Shown: positions 1,161 through 55,549 of the stretch, piece by piece | Layout: the number at the start of each line of letters is the position of its first letter | Position numbering within the stretch: position 1 is the first letter of the stretch | Assembly: GCA_036785375.1 (NCBI GenBank) | Contig: JAWMAR010000085.1 | Location: forward strand, 7,564,001-7,628,000 | DNA from: Leucoraja ocellata | Lineage: Eukaryota | Reading direction: 5' to 3' | DNA: 64,000 bases | Position numbers and translations under genes: made by a program | The notes under the pieces: model-generated | What the model saw: the letters and a program-made list of their open reading frames with translations, nothing else | Told to the model about the DNA's origin: nothing | Database searches by the model: none

Positions 1161-1245
1161 TGATTTAAATCTTGCTTTTCCTCTACCAAGTATACATTGC
1201 ATCATAGACTGCTGACATTAACACCAACTCACCCTTGCTTCACAG

Positions 1246-1650
1246 AGGCCGACCTTAAGGTGGAGATCAGCATTAGTGGGACGAATATTTTGGAAGGGGG
1301 TGTTCTTCAGTTTGCCTGCAATGTTCGTTCGGGGGCCACAGTGCCTGGGCAGCTTTCTGTTATTTGGCAGTTCATGGACAAACACAAGGTGAAGAGCAAT
1401 ATAATTGAGATGCAGCAGAATGGTGTCCAAGTCACTGCTCCGCCCTACCGTGAGCGGGTTGGTCACGGAGAAGTCCGGATGGCCAGAGTGGGGTCCGATA
1501 CTTTTACGTTGGGCATTTATGATGCCAGGATTTCAGATGAAGGAATGTACTCTTGCAAAGTGATGGAATGGACAGCGATGCCCAACCAAAACTGGAAACT
1601 AATCGGAGATTATGTCAGCAGTGATAAGGCAGTGACGATTAAATCTCTGG
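1246..1650 (+). CDS. Exon: V-type Ig domain (like IGSF3/CD101 domain 4)
   Basis: ttcacAG acceptor, G|GTGAG donor; ILEGGVLQFACNV..SVIWQ..DEGMYSCKVMEW parallels recalled IGSF3 ILEGEDLRFSCSV..SVIWQ..DEGQYECHVTEW. Confidence 0.92.
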
Positions 1651-4600
1651 GTGAGCGTTTCAACATCGAGTGTCTGTGATACTTTGTTTTGATGCAAGGG
1701 ATTTACTGCCTAGAGGCACAGTCAGAGTCATTCAGCACGGAAATAGATCCAACTCACCCACGCTGACCAAGATGCACCCATCTACACTAGTCCATGTGGC
1801 CCATATCCTTCCAAGCATTTCCTATCCATGTACCAAGTATCGCTTATATTCAATGATCACTGATACATTATTGTCACGTGTACCTAGGTACAGTCAAATG
1901 CTTTGTTTTGCACACTTTTCTGGTACCTGTACCAACAAAGTTACAAAAGTTCACCAAACAGTCCTGTCTTCTTATAGTACCTGCCTCAACTACCTCCTCT
2001 GGCAACTAATTCCATATACCCACCGCCCTATGTCTGGAAAAATGTTGTCCCATAGGTTTAGTTTAGAGATGCAGCGTGGAAACAGACCCTTCGGTCGACT
2101 GATTCCATGCTGACCATCAATCACTGTCCCCAATCAGTTCTATGTTATTCCCACTTTCCCACTAGTTCTATGTAATCCCACTTTCTCATCCATACCCTAC
2201 ACACAAGGGGAAATTTACAGAGGGTCAATTAAACTACAAACCGGAAGTCTTTGGGATGTGGGAACACCGGGAGGAAACGCATTTAGATGAATTTCTCTCT
2301 TTTTTTAAACATTTGTTGACAGAAAGCATCTTTAAAGTCATTGCCATAACCCGCACGCCAACTGCAAGATACTACGGTACATTTGAACTGCAGTGCTTCA
2401 TCCAGCCGCCAATCATCAATCACCTCCCAATTGACGTGACGTGGAAATTTCAGCCGGCTAATTCGAACGAGAGCTTCCACCTCGTGACTTTCAGCCACGA
2501 CACAGCGATCGAGTGGGGAGACAAGGCAGTGAGCTTCAAAGGGAAAATGATAGTCGCTAAAACAGCATCCAACACGGTCCGCTTGCGTGTGTCCAGGGTC
2601 AGCAGCCTGGAAGCTGGCAAGTTTCTGTGCGACGCAGTATTGTGGAAAAGACAACGGCCGGATCAATGGGTCAGGGTAGTCAGCGTGACGTCAAACATCC
2701 TGCAGGTGGTGGTTCAGGCCCCAGGTAAGGCAATCATCCCTCCTCTTCTTTACATTGTCCCAGCACAGTCTTCCTCTTTTTACTACAAGGAAGAAATATA
2801 GGACGTTTAAAATTTTAGTTAGTTAGTTTAGTTTGTTGTCACGTGTACCGAGGTACAGTGAAAAGCTTTTTTGTTGTGCGCTATCCATTCAGCGTTATCC
2901 ATTCAGCGGATTACAATCAAGCCTTCCGCAGTGTACAGATACAGGATCAAAGGAATAACGTTTAGTGCAAGATAATGCTTTGTCCAGTTAATAGACACAA
3001 AATGCTGGAGTAACTCAACGGTTTAGGCCGCATCTCTGGAGAAAAGGAATAGGTGACGCTTTGGGTCAGAACGCTTCCTCAGAATGACGGTGTCTTTGGA
3101 AGGGTTCCAAACTCGAAATGTCACCTATTGCTTTTCTCCACAGATGCTGCCCGACCCGCTGGGTCACTCCAGCATTTTGTGTCTATTGAAGTCCAGTAAA
3201 GTTTGATTAAAGATGGTCCGAGGGTCTCCAGTGAGGTAGGTGGGAAGTCAGGACCGCTTGCCCGATAATTCAGTTGAATATTAAATCAAAACACACAGTG
3301 CTGGAGTAACTCCGTGGGTCAGGCAGCACCTGTGGAGGGAATGGTTTTGGCTACATTTTAGATTGGGAACCTTCTTCACAGTTGCTAATATTCAAAATAG
3401 GAACAATCCTGACTGAAGAAAATTTGAAGTAAAACCTAACTGACTGTTGTAAATGAATTAAAACATGAATATATTAATTAAGATGAAGTTAAAAATCACT
3501 TAATGCAAGGATGGGGAAGGAAACTGGAGTACCCGGAGGAAACCCATGCAGAACGTGCAAACTCCATACAGACAGCACCCTAGGTCAGGATTGAACGCGG
3601 GTCTCTGTCACTGTGAGGCAGCAGCTCTACCAACTGCGCCACTATGCTTAAATGGTACAAAGAAATATAATAACGCTTTTTTTTAATGTTTTCTCTTCTA
3701 CTTCTGCAGTAAGCCGTTTGCAGCTCGCACAAGGGGACACAACTATATATAAAAGGGTTAGCGACGTCATTGAACTCGATTGTAAAATCTTTGCTCAAAC
3801 CCAGAATGATTCCCAGTTCTCAGTCTCATGGATCTTCATAAAGCCACAAGGGCAGAAGGAGATAACTCTTCTGAACATCGATCGCAACAACATCATTCGA
3901 TACAACGAGGAATTGCGAGCCAGCGATCAGGAGGGGACGAAGATGCGGGTTGAGAAGACTTTGCGTGATCTTTACAAACTAATTATAGGGAAAGCTGAAT
4001 TGACCGATCAAGGGAATTACTGTTGTGCGGTCACAGAATGGCTACTAGACCCCAACAATGTTTGGTATGAAGTGGGCAAAGTCGTGTCGGCAGTGACCAC
4101 CGTACAAGTACATACACCAGGTAAACACATCTCACAAACGCCTCTTGACTGGAACCAATGCCACTGATTTAAGTGACGGTTTAGGTGATTATTTACATCT
4201 CAAGTTCAAGTGAGTTTATTGTCATGTGTCCCTGTATAGGACAATGAAATTCTTGCTTTGCTTCAGCACACAGAACATAGTAGGCATTTACTACAGAACA
4301 GATAAGTGTGTCCATATACCATGATATAAATATATACACACATGAATAAATAAAGTGCAAATAACAGATAATGGGTTATTAATAATCATAGTTTTGTCTG
4401 AGCCAGGTTTAATAGCCTGATGGCTGTGGGGAAGTAGCTATTCCTGAACCTGGTTGTTGCAGTCTTCAGGCTCCTGTACCTTCTACCTGAAGGTAGCAGG
4501 GAGATGATCTCCATGAGTTCTCCAAAAGTGTCAAAGTGCTGGGGTACTTGGTGGGTCAGGCAGCATCTCTGGACGACATAATTTTGGTGATGCTTCACGT

Positions 4601-7600
4601 ATTCCTTTTCTCCAGAGATGCTGACCCGCTGAGTAACTCCAGCGCTCTGTGTCTCTGTTCATTGTAAACCAGCATTTGCAGTTCCATCCTACACCACTGA
4701 TTTAGATTTAAGTTTTGGTTTAGGTTTATTGTTATTGTTTGGTGCAGTGAGGTACAGTGAACAAATTTGTCAAGCATGCCATCCTAACAGATCAGATATA
4801 CCACACGTAGATAGAGGCAGCACAGTGGCGCAGCGGGTGATTTGATGCTTTACAGCGCCAGAGACCCGGGTTTGATCATGACTGTGGGTGCTGCGTGTAT
4901 GGAGTTTGTACATTCTCCCTGTGACCATGTGGGTTTTCTCCGGGTGCTCCAGTTTTCTCCCATGCTCCAAAGACGTCCAAGTTTGTAGGTTAATTGGCTT
5001 TGGTAAATTGTAAAATTGACCCTAGTGTGTAGGATAGTGCCAGTGTACAGGGTGATCACTTGTCGGTGGGCAGAAGGGCCTGGACCAGGCTGTATCTCTA
5101 AAGGCTAAATATACAGTCATTTCAAAAAGACACAAAGTGCTGGAGTAATTCAGCGGTTCAGGCAACATCTCTGGAGAAAATGTTTAGGCGATGTTTCAGG
5201 TTGAGACTGAAGAAGGGTCCCGACCTGAAACATCCCCTATCCATTTTATGGAAATGCTACCCGACTCACTAAGTTCATAACTTCATTTGTCATAGGAACA
5301 GAGTTAGGCCATTTGGCCCATCGAGTCTGCTCTGCCATTCAATTTTGGCTGATCTATCTTTCCCTCTCATCCCTCTCCTGCTTTCTCCCCAGCACTCCCC
5401 ACTTACTCCAACATTTTGTGTCTATCTTTGGCCTGCCAGCATCTGCAGTTCCTTTTTATTGCATTTAGACTAAATTAAATGCCACTGTTGACCCTGTCTT
5501 CCGTCGGTTCTGCAGATGCCAATCTACAAGTCGCTGACACGAACAGGTCTGAGTCACTCAAGGAGGATGCGGCCTTTGAACTCGAGTGCGTTATCAACAA
5601 CCAAACGCAGGCAAGCTCTCAGTTCTCCGTGACGTGGTTCTTCCAAAGCAACGGGCAGCCCAAGGCATCTCGGAGAGAGCTGCTCCGTACAGATCGCAAC
5701 AACATCCAGCGTTACCGTGGGAACCTCACGGCTGATTCCCACAAGTCGACACTGCAAAGTGTGAAGGTTTCCAGCAATAACTATAAGCTGATCATGAGCA
5801 GCGTGGCGCCAGGTGATAGTGGCGTCTACTATTGCAGTGTGGAGGAATGGGTCACAAACGGCCAGAATCAATGGGCTCTTCAAGGAAGCGATGAATCCGG
5901 AAGAACAACCCTTCATGTCCATCCTTCAGGTAACGCCAGCAACCATTTTACCCAGGTGGCCAAGCGGTAGAGTTGCTGCCTCACAGCGCCAGAGACCCGG
6001 GTTCGATCCTGACTACAGGTGCTGTCTGTACGGAGTTTTACATTCTCCCTGTAACCGTGTGGGTTTTCTGCGGGTGCTCTGGTTTCCTCTCGCGTCCCAA
6101 AAAAGTACAGGTTTGTAGCTTAATTGACGGGTAAAAATTGGACATTGTCCCTAGTGTGTGTCGGATAGTATTAGTGTACAGGGCGCGGACTCGGTGTGTG
6201 GAAGGGCCTGTTTCCACCTTGTATCTCTGAAGTAATTCGACCTATTTTATTATTCTCCTTCTTTGACAATATGACCTGCTTCGAGCCATAAAAACAGGCA
6301 GTTCTGCCCAACTTGCCCTTGCTGACCAAGATGCCCCATCTATACTATTCCCATCTGTTTGCTTTTGGCCCGTATAACATCTTTAATAACATGATAATGT
6401 CTTTAATAAGCTTTAGAGTATTATCTAAATATATAATTATCCTGAAGGTATACATAGAATGAATGAAAGCTTTATTGGAATAATTAAATTCTCCAAATTC
6501 AAAAACCTGTGACGTATATAAAGAAAAAAGAAAATTACTCACAGAATGATAGGGCACACAAATGAGCCATTCGACCCAACCTAGTCAATGGTGGATGTGC
6601 AGTGCTGGAGTTACTCAGCAAGTCAGGCAGCATCTCTGGAAAACATGGATAGGTGACATTGGCCCTGACCCAAAACATTACCTATCCATGTTCTCCAGAA
6701 ATGCTGCTGGACTTGCTGAGTTACTCCAGCACCTTATGTCCTTTTGTGGAAACCAACATCTGCAGTTCCTTGTTTCAACAGTGAATGGTGGAATTTATTT
6801 TCCAGTCGCAACTCTTCCACCTTTTCCTAATATGATTATATTATGTGTTCTAAATGTGGACTAACTAAGTTTCGTAATAAAACTTACTTTGCTTAAACCT
6901 CAAGTTATGTTTTGATAAACTTCTCCACTTTTATCTCTTTAGAAATGAACACACAATCTTAGTTCACTTTTATTATGGCATTAGTGAGGTTATGATCTGA
7001 ATATTTGTTCTGTAAAATCTCTGCGTTCCTCGAATTCATTTAAATTCCACAAATAATATGTTGAGTTTTGAGTTTCGTTTTGTTTATTATCATGTGTACC
7101 AAGGTACAGTGAAAAGCTTTTGTTGCGTGCTAACTAGTGTTAACACATCATATATTGGAGTGCTGGGTGATGAGAAGTGATCTTACAAAGGTGTATATAA
7201 TCATAAGGGGAATGGATAGGGTGAATGCTTTAACCCAGAATATGGGAATCAACAATCAAGAACCAAGGGACAGAAGTTTAAGATGAGAAACAAAAGATTT
7301 AATAGGATCCTGAGGGGCAACTTTTTCAACACGGGGTGTATGGTACGGGCTGCTAGAGGAGGTAGTTGAGGCAGGTACTATAACAACATTTAAAAGATAT
7401 TTAAATGGGTACATGGATGGGAAAGGTTTAGAGGGCCAAACGTGGGCGGGTGGGACTAGTGTAGATGGGGTATCTATGTTGCCAGGGACTTCCACCTTCA
7501 CTTGTATCACCTATCACTCACCAGGCTTTGCCTCAACCCAACTCACTTTTCCAGCTTTCTCCCCCCTACTGTAATCATTCCAAAGAAGGGTATTGAGCTG

Positions 7601-10600
7601 GCCCACTGAGTTCCTCCAGTACTTTGTGTTTCTCCACCCTGTACCCCTCCGGATCTCCCTCCATCATTAATTAAGCTTAAGTTAACCATATAACAATTAC
7701 AGCACGGAAACATGCCATCTTGGCCCTACAAGTCCATGCCGAACAAATTTTTTTCCCCTTAGTCCCACCTGCCTGCACTCGTACCATAACCCTCCATTCC
7801 CTTCTCATCCATATGCCTATCCAATTTATTTTTAAATTATACCAATGAACCTGCCTCCACCACTTCCACTGGGAGCTCATTCCACACCGCCACCACTCTC
7901 TGCGTAAAGAAGTTCCCCCTCGTATTACCCCTAAACTTCTGTCCCTTAATTCTGAAGTCATGTCCTCTTGTTTGAATCTTCCCTATTCTCAAAGGGAAAA
8001 GCTTGTCCACATCAACTCTGTCTATCCCTCTCATCATTTTAAAGACCTCTATCAGGTCCCCCCTTAACCTTCTGCGCTCCAGAGAATAAAGACCTAACTT
8101 ATTCAACCTATCTCTGTAACTTAGTTGTTGAAACCCAGGCAACATTCTAGTAAATCTCCTCTGTACTCTCTCTATTTTGTTGACATCCTTCCTATAATTT
8201 GGCGACCAAAATTGTACACCATACTCCAGATTTGGCCTCACCAATGCCTTGTACAATTTTAACATTACATCCCAGCTTCTATACTCAATGCTCTGATTTA
8301 TAAAGGCTAGCATACCAAAAGCTTTCTTTACCACCCTATCTATATGAGATTCCACCTTCAAGGAACTATGCACGGTTATACCCAGATCCCTCTGTTCAAC
8401 TGTATTCTTCAATTCCCTACCATTTACCATGTACGTCCTATTTTGATTTGTCCTGCCAAGGTGTAGCACTTCACATTTATCAGCATTAAACTCCATCTGC
8501 CATCTTTCAGCCCATTTTTCCAAATGGCCTAAATCACTCTGTAGACTTTGGAAATCCTCTTCATTATCCACAACACCCCCTATCTTGGTATCATCTGCAT
8601 ACTTACTAATCCAATTTACCACACCTTCATCCAGATCATTGATGTACATGACAAACAACAAAGGACCCAACACAGATCCCTGAGGCACCCCACTAGTCAC
8701 CTGCCTCCAACCCGATAAACAGCCATCCACCATTACCCTCTGGCTTCTCCCATTCAGCCACTGTTGAATCCATCTTGCTATTCCTGCATTTATACCCAAC
8801 AGTTGAACCTTCTTAACCAACCTTCCATGAGGAACCTTGTCAAAGGCCTTACTAAAGTCCATATAGACAACATCCACTGCTTTACCCTCGTCAATTTCCC
8901 TAGTAACCTCTTCAAAAAATTCAAGAAGATTAGTCAAACATGGCCTTCCAGGCACAAATCCATGTTGACTGTTCCTAATCAGACCCTGTTTATCTAGATG
9001 CTTATATATATTGTCTCTAAGTATCTTTTCCATTAATTTGCCCACCACTGAAGTCAAACTAACAGGTCTATAATTGCTAGGTTTACTCTTAGAACCCTTT
9101 TTAAACAATGGAACAACATGGGCAGTACACCAATCCTCGGGGACTATTCCCGTTTCTAGTGACATTTGAAATATTTCTGTCATAGCCCCGGCTATTTCTA
9201 CACTAACTTCCCTCAATGTCCTAGGGAATATCCTGTCAGGACCTGGAGACTTATCCACTTTTATATTTTTCAAAAGTGTCAGTACTTCCTTCAAAAGTGT
9301 CAGTACTTCTTTCAAAAGTGTCAGTACTTCTTTCGAAAGTGTCAGTACAAGTTAAAAAATACGACGTGGAAACAGGCCTTTAGCCCACCGAATCCGCGCC
9401 GACCAGCGATCACCCCATACACTATTTCTATCCTTCACCCAAGTGACAATTTACAAAAGTCAATTGACCTACAAACCTGCACGTCTTTGGAGTGTAGGAG
9501 GAAAGCAGAGCACCTGGAGAAAACCCACACGGTCACAGGGAGAACATACAAACTCTTTAGTTGAGGCCAGTTCATTGGCTATATTTAAGAGGGAGTTAGA
9601 TGTGACCCTTGCGGCTAAAGGGATAGGGGGGTATGGAAAGAAGACTGGAACAAGATACCGAGTTGGATGATCAGCCAGGATCATGTTGAATGGCGGTGCA
9701 GGCTTGAAGGGCCGAATGGCCTACTCCTGCACCTATTTTCTATGTTTCCAGACAGCACCCGTAGCCAGGATGGAATTTGGATGCTGTAAGGCAGCAATCT
9801 ACCGCTGCGCTACTGTGCTGCCCCTCGTTGCCTCTACGTTTATTTATTTTTTCTGGCTGTTTCTATTTTCTTCTTCCAAGGGAACCTTCAGACTGTTGAA
9901 CATCACACATCACTGCATCAACTCCCCCCAGCAACAGCAGACTAAAATGGATCATGTGTTAGTTACACTGGGGAACTTTGGTTTTGCACTATTATGATCC
10001 AGTTACCTAACAGTACTGATCATTGATTGATAGTATTGTTCATTATTGTATATATATTTGAATCCTTTACGTTAATAGGCCTGTTAAGCTGCAGCAAATA
10101 AGAAACTCATTGTTCCGTTGCCGCCACATATGACAATTAAACACTCCCGACTATGGAATTCCATTATTTTTCTTATCACTGAAATTAAACTATTGGGATT
10201 ATTGTTCCCTGGAGATATTTAACTTGCCTTTTTCAAATGTCCCATTACCCAAGCTATTGCACAGACCCTTGGCATCTATTTAAAACAAATTGTTATGTGT
10301 AATTGCGTTTCTATTTCCTTGGATTCTCTCCCTTACCGGAGTCATCCATTCAGATCAAGACTTTGATTGGCTTCATTTGATTAGCTTTTTATTTTAAATG
10401 TGGCTATATCATTTTAATCTTGTGTTTTGATGCTGTGTTTAAGTGAGCAGATTCCCTGATAAATGCCAAAATTAATTAATATATCTTATTTTTAATACTG
10501 CAGTCTGTGATTTAATCCTGTCATAGAACGTAGAACATTGAACTGTACAGCACATGAGCAGGCCATTCAGCCCACAAAGCCCACACAATGCCAAATGAAA

Positions 10601-13600
10601 ATAACCTCTTCCTGCATATGATCCATATCCCTCCGTGGGGTCAGCCTACTCCACGACAGAAGGGGGAGGAATTGTAGTTTAGTTAAGAGATACTATGTGG
10701 ATACAGGCCATTCGGCCCACCAAGTCTGTGCCGACCATTGGTCCCCCGCACATAAATACTATCTACACACTCTGGGGACAATTTACAATTTTACTAAAGC
10801 CAATTAGCCTACAATCCTATATGTCTTTGGAATGTGGGAGGAAACCGGAGCACCCAGAGAAAACCACGCAGTCACAGGGAGAATGTACGAACTCCACAGA
10901 GACAGCACCCATGATCAGGATTGAACCCGGGACACTGGCGCTGTGAGGTAGCAATGCTACTGCTGCGCCGCTGTGCCGCCTGTATTGCAACTTTCCTTTT
11001 TCTTGATATTTGTCAACTCTTTCATGTTTTTCGTTTGTCTTTTGATAAAGTAATTCCGTTTTTTTTATTTGCCTTCCAAATTGTTTTTGTTAAAAATAAT
11101 TCTCCAATAATCTTTTGTAATCTTTCTTATTGTTCTTCCCTGCTGTTCATGTACCAAGTTTGATACTTTCTTTTCACTCATTTTCATTCCTCCTGCATCT
11201 TTATTCATCCGTAGGGCTTAGTTTTGTTTTATTTGAGTAGCCTATATTTTCCTGGACTCTGTTGGAGGCTCGTTTATATGTTCCCCACTGTTTTTCAATC
11301 TTATTCTCTGCCAACAATATTGTGTATTTTATTTACCAGGTTCTAATCTTATACCTTGACGCTGTCTGGTCTACAATCTATGGCAGGCTCATTATCTTAC
11401 CCATGTCCTCAATAATTATCTTAAAGCATGTTATATTATTTGGGAACTTGAAGAAGGGTCCTGTCGCCTGTCCATTCATTCCACGGATACTGCCTGACTC
11501 GTTGAGTTCCTCCAGCGCTTTACGCTTTGCGCAAGATTCCTGCATCTGCAGTTCCTAGTGTCTTCTTTATATTATTTGGAACATCCATAGAACACCCATG
11601 TTCTCTAGAGATGCTGCCTGACCCTCTGACTTACTCCAGCAGATGGCTGATCTATTTTTCCCTCTCAACCCTGTTCTTCTGCCTTCTCCCTGAAACCTTT
11701 GATGTGCTTACTAATGGAGGACGTCAATCTTTGCTTTAAAAATACCCAATGACTTAGCCTCCACTGCTGTCTGTAGCAATGAATTCCACAGATTCATCAC
11801 TTTTGGCTAAAGAAATTCCTCCTCATCTCCATTCTATTGTCACGTGTCCCGAGGTACAGTAAAAAGTTCTTGTTTGTTTGTTATCCAATTAAATTATCCT
11901 TTGGTCACATTTTCTCTTTTTGTAATCTTACAGCGCGCCAACACCCCTATAGTGATACGTTTGTTTATTAATGTGTAGGAAGGAACTGCAGATCCTGGTT
12001 TAAACCGAAGATAGACACAAAAAAGCTGGAGGAACTCAGCGGGACAGGCAGCATCTCTGGAGAGAAGGAATGGGTGATGTTTCGGGTCGAGGCCCGTTTC
12101 TCTTTCATGTGAATTTCTATCTGAAGAAGATTCTCGACATGAAACGTCACAGATTCCTTCTCTGCAGAGATGCTGCCTGTCCCACTGAGTTACTCGAGCT
12201 TTGTATGTATCTTCTGTTTGCTTATTAATAATGCTTAGCTGATAGATAATGTAAGTGAATGATTTAGAACATTTATTCACTTAGATTTAGAGTTCTGTTA
12301 GTATACGTATTACAAGTTAAAATGTCTGCAACCTTGAGTATATTGATGGATTGTTGTTGATAAATGTAGGAACAGGAACTGCAGATGCTGGTTTACAAAA
12401 GAGACACAAAGTGCTGGAGTAACTCAGTGGGTTAGATCAGTGGTTCCCAACCTTTTTTAGCTCATGGCCGCCTTGGGATCTTTTAATTTTTCTGTGCCCC
12501 CCCCCCCCCCCCGACATTATTAGCAGAAAAAAAGTACTTCAATATTATAATACCTTCCATAAATATATCAGTGTCTATTAATTGCACATATATTCTCTTT
12601 TATTCTATTCCACAAACATCAAAAATATTTCAACTACACAGATTTAAATTTATTAGAACTGAAATTTAGGAGGCAACAGGGTGGTAGCTCTGTGGCCCCC
12701 TTCATTGAACCTGTGGCCCCCTAAATCACCAATTTTTTCTGTGGCCCCTCTGAAATTTGCCATGTGCCCTTTGGGGCCATATGGCCCCAGGTTGGGAATC
12801 ACTGGGTTAGGCAACATCTCTGGAGGACATGGATCGGTGATGTTTCTGGTCAGGACCCTTCCTCAAGTGTCCTCCAGAGATGCTGCCTGACCCGCTGAGT
12901 TACTCCAGCACTTTGAGTCTTCGTGATTACTCTAGGGTTTTTTAACTGGTTTTCCTAATTTATTTGCACACTCAATTTACATCGTGCTGGTTTAGTTTGT
13001 ATTACTGATGGAGCCATGCTGCTGCTATTTTATTCAGTGGATGTTAATACTGAAGTACTTTCCACATTGAAGTTGCTTCAGGACACTAGACACATGAGCC
13101 AAGACCAAATCATTGGCTTCTGGGCACGCAAATCTAATTACTTCTTTTATAATCTCCATTCAAATGAACAGAATTATTCAGAGCTCTTTATTGCTTCCAA
13201 TGATTCATTCAACAGAGGCTACCTACTGCTTGAATCATCTTGCTAATCCCTACTTTATTCAGTAAGACTTTGGAGGTACAGCACGGAAACAGGCCCTTCG
13301 GCTCAACGAGTCTGCACCGACCACCAATCATCCCGTACACTAGCTCTACCCCGACACAATTTACAATTTTACCAAAGCCAATTAACCTGTAATTCTTTGG
13401 AGAGTTGGAGGAAACCAGAGCACCCGGAGAAAATCCACGTGGTCACAGGGAGCATGTACAAACTGCGTACAGACAGCACCCATAGTCAGGTTCGAACCAG
13501 GGTCTCTGGCGCTGTAAGGCAGCAGCTCTACCGCTGCCTCATTTGTAAAGAGATAACGGGACGGGAGTACATGTTGAGGGACTCACTGAAGCTCGGTGCA

Positions 13601-15335
13601 GCCAATGCCAAGGCTCTGTGGGGGAGGACACCACTCTAGAATCCTTCCACTGCTGGACAATGAGGGGGCAGAGTCTGGTGGGACACCCCTCAAACTGGAA
13701 GGGATATCACCCCAGAGGACCACATGAGTGGCAAGGATATCTTGTTTAATGATAGGTGCAACACAGCTGACAGTACAGTGGTGCAGCGGGTAAAGCCACT
13801 ACCTCACAGCGCCAGAGACCTGGGTTCGATCCTGACCTCGGGTGCCATCTTCTGTGTGGAGTTTGCACGTTCTCCCTGTGACTGCCTGGGTTTGCTCTGG
13901 GTGTTCCCACATCTTAAAGACGTGCGGGTTAGTGGGTTAATTGGCCCTCTGTAAATTGCCACTGGTGTGTAGGGAGTGGATTGGAAAATGGGATAACATA
14001 GACCTAGTGTAAATGGGTGATAAAAGGGTCAGTGTGGCCTTGGTGGGCCAAAGGGCCTGTTCCCATGCTGTATATCTGAAACTGCTGTATGACACTATTA
14101 TAGTAATGGAGTCATACAGCATGGAAACAGGTTCTTCAGCCCAACTTGCCCAAGCTGACCAATGTCACATTTACACTAGTTCCACCTGAATGCATTTGGC
14201 TCATATCCCTCTAAACCTATCCTATCCATGTACCTATTCAAATATTTGTTGAAATGTTGTGACAGTACCTGCCTCAACTACCTCCTCTGGCAGCCTGTTC
14301 CATACACCCACTATGCTCTGTGTGAAAAAGATGGCTTCAGGTTCCTATTAAATCTTGTTTAAGAAGGAACTGCAGATGCTGGAAAATCGAAGGCACACAA
14401 AAATGCTGGAGAAACTCAGCGGGTGCAGCAGCATCTATGAAGTGAAGGAAATAGGCAACATTTCGGGCTGAAACCCTTCTTCAGACGGAAGGGTCTGAAG
14501 AAGGGTTTCAGCCCGAAACTTTGACTATTTCCTATTGAATCTTTACCTCCTCACCTTAAACCAATGTCCTCTGGTTCTTTCTTCCAATTAAATGTGTAGA
14601 CACTGAGAATGAATGAAGACTTTTTGCACAGTTTTTTTGTATTTTTTTTAATTTTGAATGATGTTTATGTTTGAATAACAAGACCATGGGTACGCAAAAA
14701 CAGAATATATTTTAGATGGTAGGATTTGAAGAGAAACTCTCTTGAGCACTTCCTCCAAATGCAATTGTGTGAAGCTTTCTTTAGATGCAGTCCTGGCCGT
14801 AGAACTTCTTCATTCTTTGACGTGATGTTTGTATTGTGGTTAAATCGAAGAAGTGAAAATCTCCCTCCTGATATAGTTCTGGTAGTTCTGGTAGTCTATT
14901 GGCACGTCACAGTCTTTTAAATAACTATACCCTGGGTATAACCAAACTAAACCTCAATCCTTAGTACAACCCAGGCAGTTGGTAGCTTGGATTGCAGTTT
15001 AGTTGGAGTTTGTAGTGTTTTATATCCTTGATAGTTGGGAAGAAACTTTTGATGTGCAGTTCATTGCTTCAAAGAACATTACCACTGCTAACATGATTTT
15101 CTCCTCTTTATTTCCAGCTGTTACACTCCACACCAAAGCCTGTGCCTCTCCATCACTCTTCTACTTCCTATTTGTCTACCCATTCATCATCATCATAGCT
15201 CTCCTCGCCCTCGTTGTCTACTTTTACCTGAACCCGAAAAAGCCGCAGAAATCTTCTCAAGAAAATCATTTTTGGGCACCGATTGAACCCATCACTGACG
15301 ATCTGAAAAATGAAGAGGATACAAGTGTGATATGA
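1246..15335 (+). CDS. Partial multi-exon gene (5' part outside the window): EWI-family IgSF type I membrane protein, CD101(IGSF2)/IGSF3-like; join(1246..1650,2323..2724,3710..4120,5516..5929,15118..15335)
   Basis: Five exons with canonical AG/GT sites, all phase 1, splice into one open frame: 4 V-type Ig domains with EW-x motifs, then TM segment and tail. Confidence 0.9.
2323..2724 (+). CDS. Exon: V-type Ig domain (like IGSF3/CD101 domain 5)
   Basis: Pyrimidine tract plus gacAG, G|GTAAG donor; AITRTP..FELQCFIQP..VTWKFQP..LVTF..EWGD..EAGKFLC..TSNIL matches recalled IGSF3 domain 5. Confidence 0.93.
2990..3187. mobile_element. Foldback (inverted-arm) element, probably Penelope terminal-repeat derived
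   Basis: AATAGACACAAAATGCTGGAG... / ...CTCCAGCATTTTGTGTCTATT arms; GTCCAGT on both sides. Confidence 0.8.
3710..4120 (+). CDS. Exon: V-type Ig domain (like domain 6)
   Basis: ttctgcAG acceptor, G|GTAAA donor; LDC..SQFSVSW..AELTDQGNYCCAVTEWLLDPNNVWY (EWL motif). Confidence 0.92.
4815..5105 (+). mobile_element. HE1-like tRNA-derived V-SINE (representative; about 30 full or partial copies in the window)
   Basis: A box (TGGCGCAGCGG), B-box-like head, V-core GGAGTTTGTACATTCTCCCTGTGACC..GGGTTTTCTCCGGGTGCTCC, CR1-like tail GGGCCTG..CTGTATCTCTAAA. Confidence 0.85.
5516..5929 (+). CDS. Exon: membrane-proximal V-type Ig domain
   Basis: ttctgcAG acceptor, G|GTAAC donor; DANLQV..AAFELEC..FSVTW..DSGVYYCSVEEWV resembles the last IGSF3 domain (DASLQV..AAFQLDC). 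Confidence 0.92.
5955..6232 (+). mobile_element. HE1-like SINE just downstream of an exon donor
   Basis: GGTTCGATCC B box, V-core and tail. Confidence 0.85.
7686..9348 (-). mobile_element. 5'-truncated young CR1 LINE (RT region) in the last intron, same family as 52515-56722
   Basis: 492-aa ORF nearly identical to the ORF2 C-half; same tail; flanked by AAGTTAA at 7679-7685 and 9349-9355 (candidate TSD). Confidence 0.95.
9558..9748 (+). mobile_element. CR1 3' tail nested in a SINE
   Basis: FKRELD motif and GGGCCGAATGGCCTACTCCTGCACCTATT tail; SINE 9356-9822 resumes after it. Confidence 0.8.
10675..10980 (-). mobile_element. HE1-like SINE
   Basis: Reverse-complement head, core and tail. Confidence 0.85.
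11975..12215. mobile_element. Foldback element with hammerhead-like core
   Basis: Inverted arms; CTGAAGAAG..GAAACGTC in the right arm. Confidence 0.8.
12438..12804. mobile_element. hAT (Charlie-like) MITE nested in a foldback element
   Basis: TIRs CAGTGGTTCCCAACC / GGTTGGGAATCACTG; 8-bp flanks GGTTAGAT and GGTTAGGC; host sequence resumes across it. Confidence 0.88.
13560..13755 (+). mobile_element. Tx1-type LINE ORF2 C-terminus and 3'UTR fragment
   Basis: EYMLRDSLKLGAANAKALWGRT-stop; homologous to 38500-38735 on -. Confidence 0.7.
13765..14082 (+). mobile_element. HE1-like SINE
   Basis: Head, V-core and tail. Confidence 0.85.
14358..14533. mobile_element. Foldback element with paired hammerhead-like cores
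   Basis: TTTCGGGCTGAAACCCTTCTTCAGAC / GTCTGAAGAAGGGTTTCAGCCCGAAA perfect inverted pair. Confidence 0.8.
15118..15335 (+). CDS. Terminal coding exon: transmembrane helix and short cytoplasmic tail
   Basis: ctaac branch point, pyrimidine tract and ccAG; ACASPSLFYFLFVYPFIIIIALLALVVYFY parallels recalled CD101 ICSSAPLLYFLFICPF and IGSF3 ICSNDALFYFVFFYPF; tail has W and an acidic end; TGA at 15333. Confidence 0.9.
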
Positions 15336-25725: not shown

Positions 25726-27364
25726 CACAACCTGTTTTCCTTTGCTTCAGGGCAGCACTGTGGCACGGCGATAGAGTGCTGACACGTATTCAAAGCAAAT
25801 TTTCACTGGCACTGGAAGAAGTCTCTTCAACCAATTTAGTCAGCTTGGGCAAGTTAAGATGCAGACAGAAATACAGGCCACTGTGTAACCACAATGTCAA
25901 CTAAATCAGAAATGAACTGTAGATGGAAAATGAACATGAGTAACTAAAATTGATCTTGTGAAAAAATCAATTTAATGACAAATGACACAATTGATAAGGG
26001 GAGTTGTTGAGACATAAAGTCATGCAGCACAGAACTAGACCCTTTGATCCAAGTCGTCCATGCTAACCAAGATGCCCCATCTACACTAGTCCCACCTGCC
26101 CATGTTTGGCTCGTATCCCACTAAACCTTTTAAATGTTTTTACAGTGCCTGCTTCAACTACTGTATCTCCTGTGGTAGCCCATTCCATACACCCACCACC
26201 CTCTTTGTGGAAAATGGTGCACTTCAGGTTCCTATTAAATATTAATCAAAATGAACTGCAGATGCTGGTTTATATCAAAGATAGACACTAACTGCTGGAG
26301 TAACTCAACGGGTCAGGCAGCATCTGTGGAGGGAATAGACAGACAAGATTTTGGGTCGAGTCGATCTATACATGTTCTCCAGAGATGCTGCCTGACACGC
26401 TGAGTTACTCCAGCACGTTGTGTGCTTTTTTGTATTAACCATTATCTGCAGTTCCTTGTTTCAAAATTTCTTCAATGTAAGTTAAGGTTTGAGGCGAAAA
26501 GTTCAAAAATCTAACTTTCCGCGCAATCTATTCCCAGCTGTTCTTCGAAGTTCTGATTATCCCCAGTGTGATTGTCACTGGGTCATTATTTCACAGAATC
26601 CCCAAACTCTGACGAAACATCATCTCTCACTGTATTTATTAACAGCATAAATCTTGAAGCAGCTAATAAAAAACATATTGGTTTCAGTATCCACAGTACT
26701 TAATATCCCAGGGTGGAGAGATTTGAAATACAACCCTATTAAACCAGCACTAAACCAAATGGAACATCGTGGAAGCAAGCTCACCTGAATGTAGTGGACC
26801 CTACTGAACCCAGACATTTGCAAGGTTATTGGACAAATTCAATTTATTTCTGAGGCATTCAAAGGAAGTCTAACTACTATTGAGATAAAAGGTGAATTTG
26901 ACCTGAATAAAGAAATGATTGAGAACATTGTTAGCACAATGTAATTGTTCTGGGTTTGGGAATTATGAGACACTTCAACATTGAAATAATTCTCCATATG
27001 ACAAGAAAGAATTTATAGGGTGGCACACTGCCACAGCTGGTAGAGCTGCTGCCTCACAGCTCCAGAGATCCAGGTTCAATCCTGACCTTTGTGTGGAATT
27101 TGTACATTCCCCCTGTCACAGCGTAGGTTTTCTCAGGGTGCTCTGGTTTCCTCCCACATCCCAAAGACATGTAAAAATTGCCCCTGGTGTGTAGGGATTA
27201 GATGAGAGAATGGGATAACATAGAACTAGCGTGAACAGGTGATCTATAGTCAGTGGGCCGAAGTGCCTGTTTCTATGCTGTATTTCTAAAACTAAATCTA
27301 AATGGGTGTTGGTGAAATCTAGACTCTGTCCCAGAAAATCTCTCAATGTGTTTCAAAGTTGTTC

Positions 27365-31400: not shown

Positions 31401-33757
31401 AAAGACGTGCAAGTGTGTTGGTTTAATTACCCTCTGTAAATTGCCCCTAGTGTACAGGGAGTGAATGAGAAAGTGGAATAACTTAGAACCGGTGGTCGGT
31501 GATGGTCGGCGTGGACTCGGTGGGCCGAAGGGCCTGTTTCCACGCTGTTTCTTTCATTCAATGTGATTCCTTCAGAAGATTCAGGAGAAGCAATTGCTGT
31601 ATTTCATACCAATAATTGTCAGAGTGAAAGAGTCATTCATCTGACTACATGGAGCTAAGGAGATTATTTCAGGAGGCGAAGTGAAGCAAGACAGTGGTAT
31701 GAGTAATAGTGTAATAATGGCATTGCAGAGGGGAACAATATATCTCATTGATATTGGATTCAGTGTTAGATGTAATATGAACTAAAAGATGTAATGTGGT
31801 GAAGCAGAGAGCTATTGTTAGTTGAACTTCTTTTATACCGTTCTAGTTTTAAGGGTCATATGTTTAAATAGCACCCAGTATTTGATGAAGCAAAGCTCCA
31901 GAGGCCCGGGTTCGATCCTGACCTTGGCTACTGTCTGCACAGACTTTACACATTCCCCCTGCAACCAGGTGGGTTTCCTCTGGGTGCTCCGGTTCCCTCC
32001 CACATCCCAAAGACATGTGGGTTTGTAGGTTAATTTGCCCCCAGAGTGTAGAGAGTGGGTGAGAAAGTGGGATAACATGGAACTCATGTGAACGAGTGAT
32101 CGATGGACTCGTTGGGCTGAAGGTCCTGTTTTCATGCTATATCTTCCAATCAATTCAATTCAATATAATATGATCTATTTTAGTTTAGTTTAATTTAGAG
32201 ATGCAGCGTTGAAACGGCCCCTGCGGCTCACTGAGTCTGCGATAACCAGCGATCACCCATTCACACAAGTTCTATTCCACACACTAGGGACAATTTACAG
32301 AAGCCAATTAACCTAGAAACCCAGAGAAAACCCACACGGTCACATGGAGAACGTACAAACTCTATACAAACAGCACCCATAGTCAGGATTGAACCCAGGT
32401 CTCTGGCTCTGCGAGGCAGCAACTCTGCCCGTGAATAATTTAGTGCAGTGTGAATACTTGTCAGTGTCAGATAAAGGATATTTGTATGAACCATTAATCT
32501 TAAGCTCAAACAACCTTTGCCAAACTGCCACAACTGAAGTTGACAGAGTTTTGTACACTACCAAAGACGGGTATCTTTCCGAATGCCTTCCTGTGTGGAA
32601 AGGTCGAGGAGTCTGTCTATATCTTACAATGTGAGTTAAAGATTAACGAGACAAGAATTAGATAAAGTTGTTGACACACAGAACTGCAGTTGCTGGAATC
32701 TTGAGCAAGACACAAAGTACTGGAGGAACTCAGTGGGTCATGCAGCATCGGTGGAGGGAATGGACAGACGATGTTTAGGGTGTGGACTCCTCTTCAGCCG
32801 GGTTGGACATAATCCTCTGTATTCCTACCAGACTGAAGAATGGTCTGAATCCAAAGCATCGCCTGTCCATTCCCTCCACAGATGCTGCCAGACCTGCTGA
32901 GTTCCTCCAGCACTTAGTGTTTGTAAATATAATTTGTTTTTTCTTTCTTACTGAGGATCTTTCCAATGTTTGCATTGGAAAATAAAATATATCTGGTCTC
33001 CTCTTTAACCAGTTTAGGGCTCAATTGCCAAAGTCTATTCCCTTAATTGAAACATTATTTGCTACACTTTGGAGAGTGCTTTTAGGTGGACAATATTTGA
33101 TAGAGCATTATCGCCCAGAGATCAGGCAGACACCCACGTTACTATAATTACCTTATAAAATTGAGTTTTCCTGCACAGAATGGAGAAATAAATGCTCCAC
33201 CAAAATGTGAAAGCTGCAGCAGAGAGTATAAATCATCTTCATTAAATGTAACACAAAGACATTGTCAAAAATCAATACTTTAGACTTCCCTTGGAAATAT
33301 TTGACATACTTCCTCAGCAAATGAACTCAACTGTGTAGGAAGGAACTTATACCAAATATTGCTGGCTTATACCAAATATAGACACAAAGTGCTGGTGTAA
33401 CACGTTGGGTCAGGCAGCATCTCTGGAGAAAAGTCTGAAGAAGGGTTCCAACCCAAAACGCCACCCGTCCTTTTTCTCCAGAGATGCTGTCTGACCGACT
33501 GAGTTACTACAGCACCTTGTATCTATCTAAGTGAAATTAACTCATCTGTTTTAAAAGTTGGTTTGGGAACAGCTCTGCCCTAGACCGTGTGAAATCACAG
33601 AGAGTTGTTGATGCAGCCCAGTCGGCCACACAGACCAGACCCCCCACCATTCAGTCCATCTACACCATGCTGCCTCGGAAAAGCAGCAGACATGATCAAA
33701 GACATCTCACCCCAGTCATTCCTTCTTCTCCCTGCTTCCATCGGGCAGAAAATACAG

Positions 33758-34058: not shown

Positions 34059-34283
34059 TAAATAAGAAGCTTGAAAGCATGCATCACCAGACTCAGAAAT
34101 AGCTTCTTCCCTGATGTTATCGGGCTAACATAAGCTAAGGTGTAGCCTCAATCCTTAAACTGATCTCATTGCAGACTTTGGACTTTTTCTCTGGAACTAT
34201 AATGCTACAAATGTGAAAATCACTTTCTGCTCTCCAGTGTTTATCTTTACCTGGTCTATTTGTGTATGGCTTGATTGTATTTA

Positions 34284-35947
34284 CATTGCCCTCCATAATG
34301 TTTGGGACAAAGACCCATCATTTATTTATTTGCCTCTGTACTCCACAATTTGAGATTTGTAATAGTTAAATTGCACATTGTCAGATTTTATTAAAGGCCA
34401 TTTTTATACATTTTGGTTTCACCATGTAGAAATTACAACTGTTTTTATACATAGTCCCCCCATTTCAGGGCACCAAACATTTTGGGACACATGGCTTCAC
34501 AGGTGTGTGTAATTGCTCAGGTGTGTTTAATTGCCTCCTTAATGCAGATATAAGAGAGCTCTCAGCACCTAGTCTTTCCTCCAGTCTTTCCATCACCTTT
34601 GGAAACTTTTATTGCTGTTTATCAACATGAGGACCAAAGTTGTGCCAGTGAAAGTCAAAGAATCCATTATGAGACTGAGAAATAAGAATGAAACTGTTAG
34701 AGACATCAGCCAAACATTGTGCTTACCATGTTTGGAACATCATTAATAAGAAAGAGAGCACTGATGAGCTTACTAATCGCAAAGGGACTGACAGGCCAAG
34801 GAAGACGTCCACAGCTGATGATAGAAGAATTCTTTCTATAATAAAGAAAATTCCAATAACACCTGTCCAACAGATCAGAAACACTCTTCAGGAGTCAGGT
34901 GTGGATTTGTCAATGACCACTGTCCGCAGAAGACTTCATGAACAGAAATACGGAGGCTACACTGCAAGATGCAAACCACTGGTTAGCCACAAAAATAGGA
35001 TGGCCGGGTTACAGTTTGCCAAGAAGTAATTAATAGAGCAACAGTTCTGGAAAAAGGTCTTGTGGACAGATGAGACGAAGATTAACATATCAGAGAGATG
35101 GCAAGAGCAAAGTATGGAGGAGAGAAGGAACTGCCCAAGATCCAAAACGTACCACCTCATCTGTGAAACACGGTGGTGGGGGTGTTATGGCCTGGGTATG
35201 TATTGCTGCTGAAGGTACTGGCTCACTTATTTTCATTTATGATACAACTGCTGACGGTAGTAGCATAATGAATTCTGAAAAGTATAGACACATCCTATCT
35301 GCTCAAGTTCAAACAAATGCCTCAAAACTCATTGGCCGGCTGTTCATTCTACAGCAAGACAATGATCCCAAACATACTGCTAAGTGCTCTCTTATACCAG
35401 CATTAAGGAGACAATTAAGCACACCTGAGTACCACAAATCTCAAAGCTAACAAATGGTCAATTCTTGAGTGGCCAAGTCAATCACCTGATCTGAACCCAA
35501 TTGAGCACGCCTTTTATATGCTGAAGAGAAAACTGAAGGAACTAGTCCCCCAAACATGCATAAGCTAAAGATGGCTACAATACAGGCCTGGCAGAGCATC
35601 ACCAGAAAAGACATCGAGCAACTGGTGATGTCCATGAATCGCAGACTTCAAGCAGTCATTGCATGCAAAGGATATGCAACAAAATACTAAACATGACTAC
35701 TTTCATTTACATGACATTGCTGTGTCTCAAACATTATGGTGCCCCGAAATGGGGGGGACTATGCATAAACACTGCTGTAATTTCTACATGGTGAAACCAA
35801 AAGGTATAAAAATGGCCTTTATTAAAATCTGACAATGTGCACTTTAACAACATGTGATTTTTTTTCTATTACAAATCTCAAATTGTGTAGTACAGAGGCA
35901 AATAAATAAATGATGGCTCTTTGTCTCAAACATTATGGAGGGCACTG
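34284..35947 (+). mobile_element. Tc1/mariner DNA transposon, IR/DR type with long TIRs, full length, transposase decayed
   Basis: TA|CATTGCCCTCCATAATGTTTG...CAAACATTATGGAGGGCACTG|TA; TIRs over 200 bp with internal direct repeat; WTDETK, QQDNDPKH and SPDLNPIE motifs. Confidence 0.95.
34627..35690 (+). pseudogene. Frameshifted Tc1 DDE transposase
   Basis: MRTKVVP start, GTDRPRKT AT-hook-like motif, ends ATKY-stop; split over several frames with stops. Confidence 0.88.
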
Positions 35948-36297
35948 TATGTATCGTATGATCTGATTTATTTTGTTAGCACGCAACCAAAAGCTTTGCA
36001 CTGTACCTTGGTACATGTGACTATAATATACCAATAACTAAAACTAAAAACATAACCATAACATAATCATTGAAAGATACATTTGGATAGACACATGGAC
36101 AGGAAGGGTTTAGAGTGTTATTGACCAAATGGTTCTAGCCCATGACCTAACTTGGTCAACAAGGGCATAGTGGGGTGTGGGGCCTGCTTCCATCCTGACA
36201 GGGGAAGGGCTTGTAGGTAGTAAGATGTAAGGATGATGCTGGATCTCATTGAAGTTCAAGAACGTAATATTGGAAGAGGTATGGGTGTTTTTGATTA

Positions 36298-43074: not shown

Positions 43075-43994
43075 AAATTAATAGAACTTGGCATCATCAT
43101 ATTCGACCCAGACATTGTGTGTCGAATGGTCTCGTCTTGTGCTGTACTGTTCTATGTTCTAACAAAGTATTCTAAAGTTTTGGGTGATGTTTGATTGTTG
43201 ATCCTTGACTAAATCGCCCAGATCTCTGCACTACAACACACTCTCAGCCTTAAATCATTCACACTTGTTGGGACCACATGATATAGAAATAAAGAATGGT
43301 TGCCATTTTCTGGAGATGGCGGTTAAACTGAAAGAGATAGTAAAGAACCTCCATGCACACAGACTTTAGACTTTTAGAGATACAGGCCCTTCAGCCCACC
43401 AAGTCCACGCCGACCAGCGATTACCCCATGCACTAACACAATCCCACACAAACTAGGGACAATTTATCAAAGCCAATTAACCTAGAAACCTGCATTTCTT
43501 TGGAATATGGGAAGAAACCGGAGCACCTGGAGAAAAACCATGTGGTCACAGGGAGAACGTATAAATTCCATACAGACAGCACCCGTGGTAAGGATCAAGG
43601 TCTGGTCTCTGGTGATGTGAGGCAGCAACTCTACTGCTGTGCCACCATGCTGTCCTGAGTGGTAGTTATTTTGTGAGTATTTCAGTGCAAGTAGTAATTC
43701 TGGACACTTAAGAATGAACAGAGACTAACAGAGTGAACAGAGTGGGCACAGAGTCACTCATTTAAAAATAATGCGACTGGTTCTTTGTGCTGGCTCTGAC
43801 ATATTAGACTTCCTTGATCGAAACATGCCTTTTCATCTTTACCAATATAGTTACATATAATCTAAATGCCTCCCAAAAATTGATTGGTTAAGACATGATT
43901 TTAGAATTGGTCAGCTTGGGTCAAGTGGTGGTATGACAGCATTCAATGTATAATGTTTAAATCTATAAAAGCAAATAAATATTAATACAGTGAA

Positions 43995-44224
43995 GGAGAG
44001 AACTGTAGATGCTGGTTTACACCGAAGATAGACACACAATGCTGGAGTAACTCAGCGGGTCAGGCAGCATCTCTGGAGAAAAGGAATGGGTCACATTTCG
44101 GGTTGAGACGCTTCTTCAGACACCCATTCCGAAGAAGGGTCTCAACCTGAAACATCACCTATTCCTTTTATCCAGATGTGTTTCCCCGACCCATTGAGTT
44201 TCTCCAGCATTTTGTGTCTATCTT
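43995..44224. mobile_element. Foldback element
   Basis: Inverted arms of about 100 bp around a short spacer. Confidence 0.8.
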
Positions 44225-44894
44225 AATACAGTGAACCCTTGTTTTAATGGGTTTTGGTCATTGTGAATGATGGCTGCCCACAACATTCCCAGTTTACTCC
44301 GCCTCTTTGGCCTCTTCCAGGCTGTGCCTGTCACTGTCACCACAGGTTTACTGTACTTAATAATGTATAAAGGCTGTTATTAAACATACCTGGATTTTAA
44401 TAACCAGTTAACCAGCAATGTGCAATCCTAAAACTGGATTCCTAGTTTTGAAGATATCAAGGAACTGCAGATGCTGGTTTACAAAAAAAGACACAAAGTG
44501 CTGGAGTAGCTCAGCGGGTCCGGCAGCATCTCCGGAGAGCATGGATAGGTGACGTTTTGGGTCGGGACCTTTCTTCAGACTATCTTACTTCCTTACTATC
44601 TTACTTACTTTTTTTCTGTGTAACCTTCGATTCTCCAGCATCTGCAGTTCCCTCTTAAACACTATCTTACTTCTGGATTCACTTAGATGGTTAAAACACT
44701 CAATCTTGTTGGAATGTGCACAGTTGAGGCAGTGTTAAAATAGTTCCAATTATATGGAACCGGTGCCAAAAATCTGTGTTCAATGGAGAAAATGGGCTTT
44801 TATGCAAAGCAATGCACCATTATTCCCTATGTTATTTTTATTGTGAGGGATAATAGGAACAGGCCCTTCTGCCCACAATGACCCTTCCGAACAT

Positions 44895-50204: not shown

Positions 50205-50408
50205 GAAACAAGGAACTGTAGATGTTGCTTTACAAAAAAAAGACACAGGGTGCTGGTGTAACTCAGCGGGTCAGGCAGCTTCTCTGGAGAACATGGATAG
50301 GTGACGTTTAAGTCGAAGAATGGATCTGACCTGATATGTCAGCTATCCATGTTCTCCAGAGATGCTGCCTGACCCACTGAGTTACATCAGCACCTTGTGA
50401 CTTTTTTA
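50205..50408. mobile_element. Foldback element
   Basis: Inverted arms GGTGCTG.TGTAACTCAG / CTGAGTTACATCAGCACC. Confidence 0.78.
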
Positions 50409-51404
50409 AATATCCTCCTATTTATTCTGAATTCTCCTACCCTGTTCCATTTCCCCAAATGCATCATCTTACCAACAACTAGAGAGCGGTCCGGAGATGC
50501 TATCTACTTCATTAAAGACCCTGGGACTATCTTTAATTGGACTTTATCTTGCACTAAACGTTATTCCTTTCTTTATGTACCTGTACAGTGTGGACGGCTT
50601 GATTGTAATCATGTATTGTCTTTCCGCTGACTGGTTAGCATGCAACAAAGCTTTTTGCTGTACCTCGGTACACATGACAATAAATTAAACTAAACTCCAT
50701 TTGTGCAGGAAGGACCTGTCTGAAGTAGTGTCTCAACCTAAAATGTCACATAGAATGATTTACACTGAAGGTAGACACAAAATGCTGGAGTAATTCAGCA
50801 GGTCAGGCAGCATTTCTGGACAAAAGGAACAGGTGATGTTTCATGACGAGACCCTTCCTCAGACAGTCCGAAGATTGGTCTCGACCTGAAGCGTCGCGTA
50901 TTCCTTTCTTCCAGAAATGATGCCTGACCCACTAAGTTACTCCAGCTCAAGACAATCTGTATCTCCCTGCAGTCTAAAGGTTTCCTCCTTCATGTCTATT
51001 GCATGGACAGTTTGCGTATTGTCTGCAAACACCTTTATGGTGGCCGTTCAATAACATGTAAATAGTTGTAATATCTTTCAAAAAGCGAGGGAATGAGTTC
51101 TGATCTACCGCAGAACGCCACCACTAATGGCCTTCCTGTTGCATAAGCACACATCAAATATTACCTTTGTTCTCTGCTGCTGAACCAATTATAGACCCAA
51201 CTTACCGTTCTTCATGCTGTTCCCTGGGCTTTTACTGTTCTGAGCAGGTCTGCCATGCAGGACCTTGTCAAAAGCCTTGTAAGAATCTACCTCAATTAGC
51301 TGTCGCCTTGCCTAATCATACCTTTGTCTACTCAAGCCATCCTTACCCTCTGTCCTCCTTGTTTATCTTCAACCTTTTTTGAAACTATGCTAAATCTAAC
51401 TGCA

Positions 51405-55484: not shown

Positions 55485-55549
55485 TTCTGCTTCCTGCCTC
55501 CCATTCTGTCTACTACCTTTCGCTATTTGAGTCCCTCGCCCCAACCATT

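Follow-up and report, generated by a model that had tools for sequence, protein, structure and literature searches.

Arms of a very abundant fold-back repeat are terminal pieces of a Penelope-like element with decayed hammerhead motifs

Results and discussion

The locus and its fold-back insertion

The stretch of DNA analysed here, 64 kb long and referred to as the window, carries on its plus strand a gene with V-set Ig-domain exons and a membrane-anchor-like last exon (Table 1). This multi-V-set Ig-domain membrane protein may be EWI/IGSF3-like; a solved-structure search with a host exon returned antibody domains only. An intron of the gene holds, upstream of the last exon, a 177-bp insertion (14357-14533), so that the location in introns proposed by the first-pass annotation is borne out at this site. 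The insertion target was the 3' end of a CR1-type LINE, and a 15-bp duplication flanks the insertion. Its flank matches the end of an RT/endonuclease ORF copy at 52543-52748, and the 15-mer of the left duplication (14342-14356) is also found at the match end, once each, in five further host-repeat copies within the window.

The insertion consists of a minus-strand arm of 130 nt, a spacer of 6 nt and an inverted arm of 41 nt. The long arm belongs to the youngest subfamily of the repeat described below, and its sequence was also found after the ORF stop in four copies of the parent element (L026, L028, L033 and L041). Its hammerhead motif is the only one among the window arms to pass a permissive test for intactness; the predicted cut site falls between 14457 and 14456, and position 15.2 has decayed from C to U. 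In the short arm, which terminates in a 5-nt microhomology with the target, the motif is broken at position 16.2 and in helix I. Each strand of the fold-back is predicted to form a hairpin of about -76 to -78 kcal/mol with the core fully paired, and the host pre-mRNA would carry the plus-strand motif, which is broken in sequence too. MicroRNA matches at the insertion were set aside as reflecting merely its hairpin shape.

Other repeats surround the insertion. A 1,046-aa open frame on the minus strand (52608-55745) with endonuclease and RT domains is a nearly intact ORF2 of a CR1-type LINE. Two plus-strand frames at 34679-35447 lie inside inverted repeats (34282-34470 and 35743-35949), and their motif presumably marks a broken Tc1/mariner transposase. 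A tRNA-type SINE, which we assume to be V-SINE/HE1-like, is likewise abundant, at 13800-14070 and many other places in the window. Two separate fold-backs, at 14342-14356 and at about 26229-26246, occupy the same position of two CR1-type repeat copies, after the AT-rich stretch TATTAAAT, which hints at a preferred target site.

Table 1 Features of the window and of the insertion at 14357-14533
Feature	Position	Strand	Basis
Host gene: V-set Ig-domain exons and last, membrane-anchor-like exon	1164-15332	+	Pfam V-set on three exons; ORFs
53 arms, all of one family, with 16 head-to-head pairs	691-63188		Profile search
Head-to-head pairs	2970-3189, 4532-4692, 5119-5275, 6600-6774		Profile search
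Head-to-head pairs	11975-12218, 12798-12923, 14359-14530, 26247-26459		Profile search
Head-to-head pairs	32677-32924, 33336-33547, 43994-44227, 50207-50413		Profile search
Head-to-head pairs	50755-50978, 51493-51671, 58715-58920, 62449-62697		Profile search
Left target-site duplication, 15 bp, within 3' end of CR1-type LINE	14342-14356	+	Sequence and target-site duplication scan
Long arm: hammerhead-bearing pLTR end of PLE, arm body, tail of about 35 nt	14357-14486	-	Model positions 3-135, subfamily 5
Minimal hammerhead of long arm	14455-14486	-	Helix I 2 bp; core 14484-14478; stem II 14476-14465; GAAA; GUU triplet
Spacer of 6 nt, loop of the fold-back	14487-14492		Sequence and fold
Short inverted arm	14493-14533	+	Model positions 6-43; sequence
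Right target-site duplication, 14/15 identical	14529-14543	+	Sequence and target-site duplication scan
C-terminal GIY-YIG fragment of parent PLE ORF	58291-58539	-	72-76% identity to longer copies L114 and L117; translation

Abundance of the arm family

A profile of the arm was grown from the long arm of the insertion. It detected 52 to 53 arms in the window, 32 of them in the 16 head-to-head pairs, and had no matches in reversed sequence. The more than 20 copies noticed in the first-pass annotation are thus real, all 13 positions given for them lying within 20 bases of an arm. Within the host gene, 11 arms are on the plus and 10 on the minus strand, showing no bias against sense hammerheads.

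Exact copies of a 31-nt core number 15,546 in the genome (control, 0). A sample of 80 stretches of 10 kb, chosen at round coordinates on large contigs, contained 454 arms that make up 5.2% of its bases, from which we extrapolate approximately 1.95 million arms (1.6 to 2.3 million) in 3.44 Gb; the very high copy number claimed earlier holds. Counts below refer to a set of 507 arms, 301 of which are solo and 206 (41%) in inverted pairs. The repeat is a very abundant fossil and not a new ribozyme element.

The parent element

Judged by its place in longer copies, the arm is the terminal repeat (pLTR end and tail), the last 100 to 135 bases, of a Penelope-like element (PLE) of Neptune/Nematis type. 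A sense arm begins 77 to 236 nt past the end of the ORF, on the same strand, in 20 of 32 PLE loci. Among 20 loci chosen because they retain the RT N-terminus, two near-complete copies (L117 and L130) show ORF end, UTR, arm, tail, 5' UTR, ATG and ORF in one continuous order, with the ATG about 165 nt after the arm start. The arm therefore both closes the pLTR and serves as leader to the unit that follows, which upholds the PLE origin suggested earlier. In both copies the start codon lies within a splice-donor-like AG/GTATG.

Mapping to both ends of the PLE unit also settles whether the arm is a Penelope terminus or the inverted repeat of a DNA transposon. Inverted arms and a target duplication could be expected from a DNA-transposon MITE whose terminal inverted repeats merely resemble a hammerhead, a reading to which we give practically no chance. 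It is refuted by the mapping and is further at odds with the majority of solo arms, with outer ends of pairs that usually differ by a tail, and with duplications of variable length. A MITE or a self-propagating fold-back would have copies with a common junction and equal termini, but of the 103 pairs described below 97 have distinct junctions and 67 a tail on one arm only.

A protein search with the end of the PLE ORF gave 144,509 first-look candidates in the genome. No fully intact ORF was present among the 150 + 150 places scored, where the longest frames were of 342 and 644 aa. The 644-aa frame (L113) matches RVT_1 (E 9e-5) and then GIY-YIG (E 0.004), both below the Pfam cut-off; together with its homologues it has the single ORF, RT followed by a C-terminal GIY-YIG domain, of an EN+ PLE. 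Homologues of the ORF number 2,948; they carry RT domains, some of them GIY-YIG domains too, and those with names, at 63-73% identity, come from sharks and rays. Translations contain RT motifs, a DKG motif, a C-x4-C-x2-C linker and a GIY-YIG domain. The Neptune and Nematis clades are defined by a C-x2-5-C-x2-C linker before GIY-YIG and a DKG motif (PMC8557442), so that the parent is placed in one or other of them, by motifs rather than by a tree. Two further traits of EN+ PLEs are present, namely a pLTR, with the 3' end repeated before the ORF, in L117 and L130, and an inverted 5'-truncated copy with a one-sided tail of 30 to 40 bp and a target duplication in many insertions including 14357-14533.

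The Penelope GIY-YIG remnant reported earlier in the window (58291-58539) is genuine, although a Pfam search did not recognise this short piece. It lacks a 3' arm of its own. The pair at 58715-58920 is located upstream and does not represent the 3' end of this remnant.

The junction from tail to ATG occurs at 750 places in the genome. Of 30 examined, three extend for more than 1.5 kb (two being one duplicated locus). The other 27 end 44 to 136 nt on; in most, a truncated 3' end follows, with points of joining that vary in a manner resembling template jumps. The resulting units (L133-L162) comprise arm, tail, 5' UTR and 44 to 136 nt of ORF start followed by a truncated 3' end, measure 200 to 450 nt and have varied junctions; possibly they are seeds of retrozyme-like tandems. 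Short partial tandems were seen outside the window in L129 and L135, and one at L129:1702-2464 repeats a 66-nt unit twelve times, the unit being arm body that lacks the core start. Within the arm model, an invariant stem of 8 to 9 bp pairs positions 53-60 (body) with 113-120 (tail) and encloses the first 3' end site, making it a candidate signal for the enzyme.

The hammerhead motif and its decay

The first-pass annotation parsed the inner end of the arm as a minimal hammerhead, and most of the parse stands: the CUGAAGA core, an extra A, a 4-bp stem II, GAAA, CG and UH. Helix I was given as 3 bp. It is 2 bp, since the base three positions upstream of the core is A and not G, as seen in 91% of the 46 arms that keep upstream UTR. 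The majority sequences of the subfamilies have every published feature of the minimal type I hammerhead of PLEs (core, extra base, G10.1-C11.1, palindromic 15.2-16.2). Across six well-populated subfamily clusters, of mean divergence 7.5 to 25%, the core is invariant and loop II variable. Only three changes fall at constrained places, all compatible (U-A to U-G twice, GUC to GUU) and one-sided, with no compensatory stem change between subfamilies. This weakly suggests that the hammerhead was kept in parent elements; the suggestion is weak because invariance extends to further parts of the arm and because no two-sided change was seen.

Two checks proposed with the earlier claim did not favour it. 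Double changes at three stem II pairs (8, 2 and 3) show no excess over those predicted under independence (approximately 7, 2 and 3). Covariance models from Rfam matched no hammerhead family up to E 10, either in the window or in an exact-core copy; there was no sign that Rfam models the minimal PLE form.

Genomic cores, as had been noticed, are mostly decayed. The core letters are kept in 79 of the 507 arms, and 32 pass the permissive full test. CpGs in the core of the youngest subfamily survive no better (50/67 and 55/70) than those elsewhere in the arm (49/64, 55/71 and 61/69), with a lower value (24/52) for a single CpG close to the first end site. The cores of genomic copies thus decay neutrally.

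Folding leads to a similar picture. The active dimer is predicted at -6 to -7 kcal/mol, whereas other dimers reach -21 to -26, which makes it 15 to 19 kcal/mol less stable. This modelled weakness is in line with the low in vitro activity of such motifs (PMC4209133) and with the protein dependence of PAc, the Poseidon element of Anolis (Frangieh et al. 2024, PMC11167929), which belongs to another clade than the present family with its zinc-finger linker. Predicted stem II values exceed 0.5 in 5 of 68 solo arms and in 2 of 29 fold-backs; stem II is seldom formed in solo arms too, so its burial is not peculiar to pairs. The ribozyme motifs of genomic copies are predicted to be inactive.

Fold-back pairs probably form independently

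The 507 arms include 103 head-to-head pairs and 18 tail-to-tail neighbours. Back-to-back hammerheads had been proposed for these pairs, and a few come close, with both arms reaching the core start in 21 of 103; in none are both motifs intact. Junction coordinates are distinct in 97 of the 103 pairs, and four pairs share one coordinate.

These figures bear on the claim that the arms belong to an undescribed, non-autonomous rod-like element, which would spread as one fold-back unit and cut on whichever strand is transcribed. The high share of arms in inverted pairs, the pairs that reach the core start twice, the four with a common junction and the plentiful arm-bearing RNA reads of a related sample (see below) are what such an element would give. 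We nevertheless regard it as very improbable and do not retain the claim. Since nearly all junctions differ, the pairs are not copies of one fold-back master. The lack of any pair with two intact motifs, the neutral decay of CpGs, the absence of compensatory change and the predicted full pairing of the core on both strands at 14357-14533 all speak against it, as do the RNA reads, most of which run into unlike sequence and whose starts and ends do not pile up. Head-to-tail tandems with intact hammerheads, the arrangement of non-LTR retrozymes, were not found either, the window arms being solo or head-to-head.

Paired arms are related. Among 75 pairs with confident assignment, 68 have both arms in the same subfamily group (31% expected) and seven are mixed. 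Private non-CpG differences are common to the two arms in 71 of 493 cases (14%) against 6% by chance (maximum 9% in 500 draws), which could stem from gene conversion inside the palindrome. Exactly one tail is present in 67 of 103 pairs (50 expected, p 0.0006). Arms use two 3' end sites approximately 30 nt apart, and within pairs the combination of site 1 with the tail end occurs in 46 of 103, site 1 twice in only one. Target duplications of at least 10 bp flank 36 of the 103 pairs (one in the control); they are 10 to 20 bp long, and about six of them are nested arm sequence.

Such pairs could be produced by snap-back: a small hairpin in the hammerhead region would let the first cDNA fold and serve as its own template, with no priming on a second cut end. 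Several junctions do have their overlap on the natural palindrome formed by stem II with GAAA (offsets -18 to -19), the short arm at 14493-14533 stops at a microhomology with the target, and similar palindromes have been interpreted as self-priming (PMC3846280). Agreement of paired arms in subfamily and in private differences would also follow. Yet under snap-back the 3' end of the second arm should be scattered, contrary to the strong preference for site 1 with the tail end, and the seven mixed pairs are not predicted. We consider snap-back as the sole route somewhat doubtful; both it and priming on the second cut end may operate.

The 5' edge and RNA reads

Most core-bearing arms end within about six bases upstream of the core, at TCAGT. 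The edge is a slope and not a single base: among 89 solo arms without UTR, approximately 87% match the parent at -1, then 71, 49, 28, 19 and 12% at -2 to -6, followed by background. Upstream UTR is kept in 22 to 26% of core-bearing arms in the sample (46/205 to 49/191), in 17 of 41 (41%) in the youngest subfamily and in 17 of 30 exact-core loci inspected by eye. A stop at TCAGT is therefore common but not the rule.

The TCAGT of the parent presumably represents an initiator consensus. An initiator-like TCACT has been named in a rotifer pLTR, and the promoter of a Drosophila element lies within its pLTR (PMC2377424). We rate it as likely as not that the RNA begins at this point and that its start is why the majority of copies go no further than just upstream of the core. 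Cleaved RNA was rejected as the usual template, as the number of arms (of 507) beginning at model positions 34-38 is 15, compared with 12 to 34 in neighbouring 5-base bins.

The edge might instead be a splice acceptor, composed of pyrimidine tract, CAG and core, or a stall at the hammerhead fold. The UTR indeed terminates in a pyrimidine tract and CAG, and base frequencies in solo arms at -4 to -2 (C 0.39, A 0.60, G 0.70) resemble those of exon ends. In Drosophila virilis the intron extends up to the 5' end of helix I (PMC4209133). Against this, 22 solo arms have a clear duplication, and 17 of these duplications end within seven bases of the core and leave no captured exon; nor did we find a common upstream exon, or a splice-type joint among the RNA joints listed. 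We consider this origin of the edge unlikely.

RNA reads came from four runs of a related organism, possibly of another species than that of the window. Depth rises from about 500 to about 7,000 across the 5' edge, with large groups of loose ends at -3 and -2. In these four runs, starts and ends of reads show no pile and no step at the cut site; cleavage may nevertheless occur, given that the majority of copies are dead and that cut pieces drop out of poly(A) libraries. In run X23, 98% of arm-bearing reads continue into unlike sequence. The arm reads of the related organism mostly reflect read-through of genomic copies.

A model for the origin of the arms

We consider it highly probable that the arms are solo or head-to-head terminal pieces of a PLE, that the pairs are made anew at each insertion by the RT of the element, and that the motifs they carry, as predicted, are inactive as ribozymes. 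The PLE enzyme would cut AT-rich DNA on both strands, and copying would start at two internal sites of the RNA, one on each cut end. Both cDNAs would run toward the 5' end of the RNA and then be joined head to head, leaving a pair with one tail. The enzyme steps are taken from a lizard element of the Poseidon clade, a clade other than that of this family. The PAc enzyme cuts and extends both strands, two adjacent internal starts define its tail and its hammerhead needs protein (PMC11167929). In active parents of the present family the hammerhead was likely kept, and would need help from protein to cut. Neither an active copy nor an end of its RNA was observed in the material analysed.

A more specific model is tentative, and we rate it a little short of probable: the stubs would be run-off ("strong-stop-like") cDNAs of an RNA that starts at TCAGT, copied from the two internal starts, with a dimeric enzyme priming each cut end from a different site. 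For a longer copy to arise, synthesis would have to move on to a second RNA, a step to which the arm-5'UTR-arm units point.

Relation to known elements

Both the motif and the layout have precedents in PLEs (PMC3846280, PMC8557442, PMC4209133), contrary to the novelty once claimed. The minimal hammerheads of metazoan PLEs (Cervera and De la Pena 2014, PMC4209133) share the CUGANGA core, the extra base between 9 and 10.1, G10.1-C11.1, the palindromic 15.2-16.2 and the lack of helix III, and likewise occur as thousands of solo motifs and as opposite-strand pairs. Compared with them, the present arms have a stem II of 4 bp and a helix I of 2 bp, pairs spaced mostly by fewer than 60 bases instead of 100 to 700, and an extrapolated number of about 2 million versus approximately 4,000 to 9,000 motifs in coelacanth and Xenopus, obtained by different counting methods. 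EN+ PLE insertions (PMC3846280, PMC8557442) resemble ours in the head-to-head inverted copy, the tail of 30 to 40 bp at one end, the target duplication, the palindromic junctions, the solo pLTRs and the initiator-like pLTR motif. Most of ours, unlike those, have no ORF and comprise only the last 100 to 135 bases, with a sharp 5' edge above the core. The hammerhead lies about 165 nt before the ATG here, whereas it overlaps the ATG in PAc (PMC11167929).

Animal non-LTR retrozymes, reported in one chondrichthyan, are similarly non-coding, hammerhead-bearing derivatives of PLE pLTRs that also occur as dispersed monomers (bioRxiv 10.64898/2026.07.22.740005). They form head-to-tail tandems of intact motifs, whereas the arms described here are solo or head-to-head and mostly broken. 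Our search, which covered published papers, returned nothing on this arm family or on the strong-stop model, and the supplements of PMC4209133 and of the preprint may list a chondrichthyan motif. By that search the arm family is a new, extremely abundant PLE family in which the motif and the layout are already known.

Conclusions

As a ribozyme system the arm family is of little weight, its motif and layout being published and its copies decayed. As a repeat it matters more broadly: approximately 5% of the genome is one short piece, which bears on repeat annotation and on false calls of microRNAs and ribozymes. The stubs, in their millions and with fixed ends, are also of some value as a natural data set for models of how PLEs come by their pLTRs, inverted ends and tails; the numbers that such models can be tested with include the lack of a 5'-end excess at the cut site, the edge upstream of the core and the use of two 3' sites in pairs. 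If the run-off model is true, each fold-back would record both halves of one insertion, uncleaved RNA would be the usual template, and pLTRs, inverted ends and one-sided tails would be accounted for.
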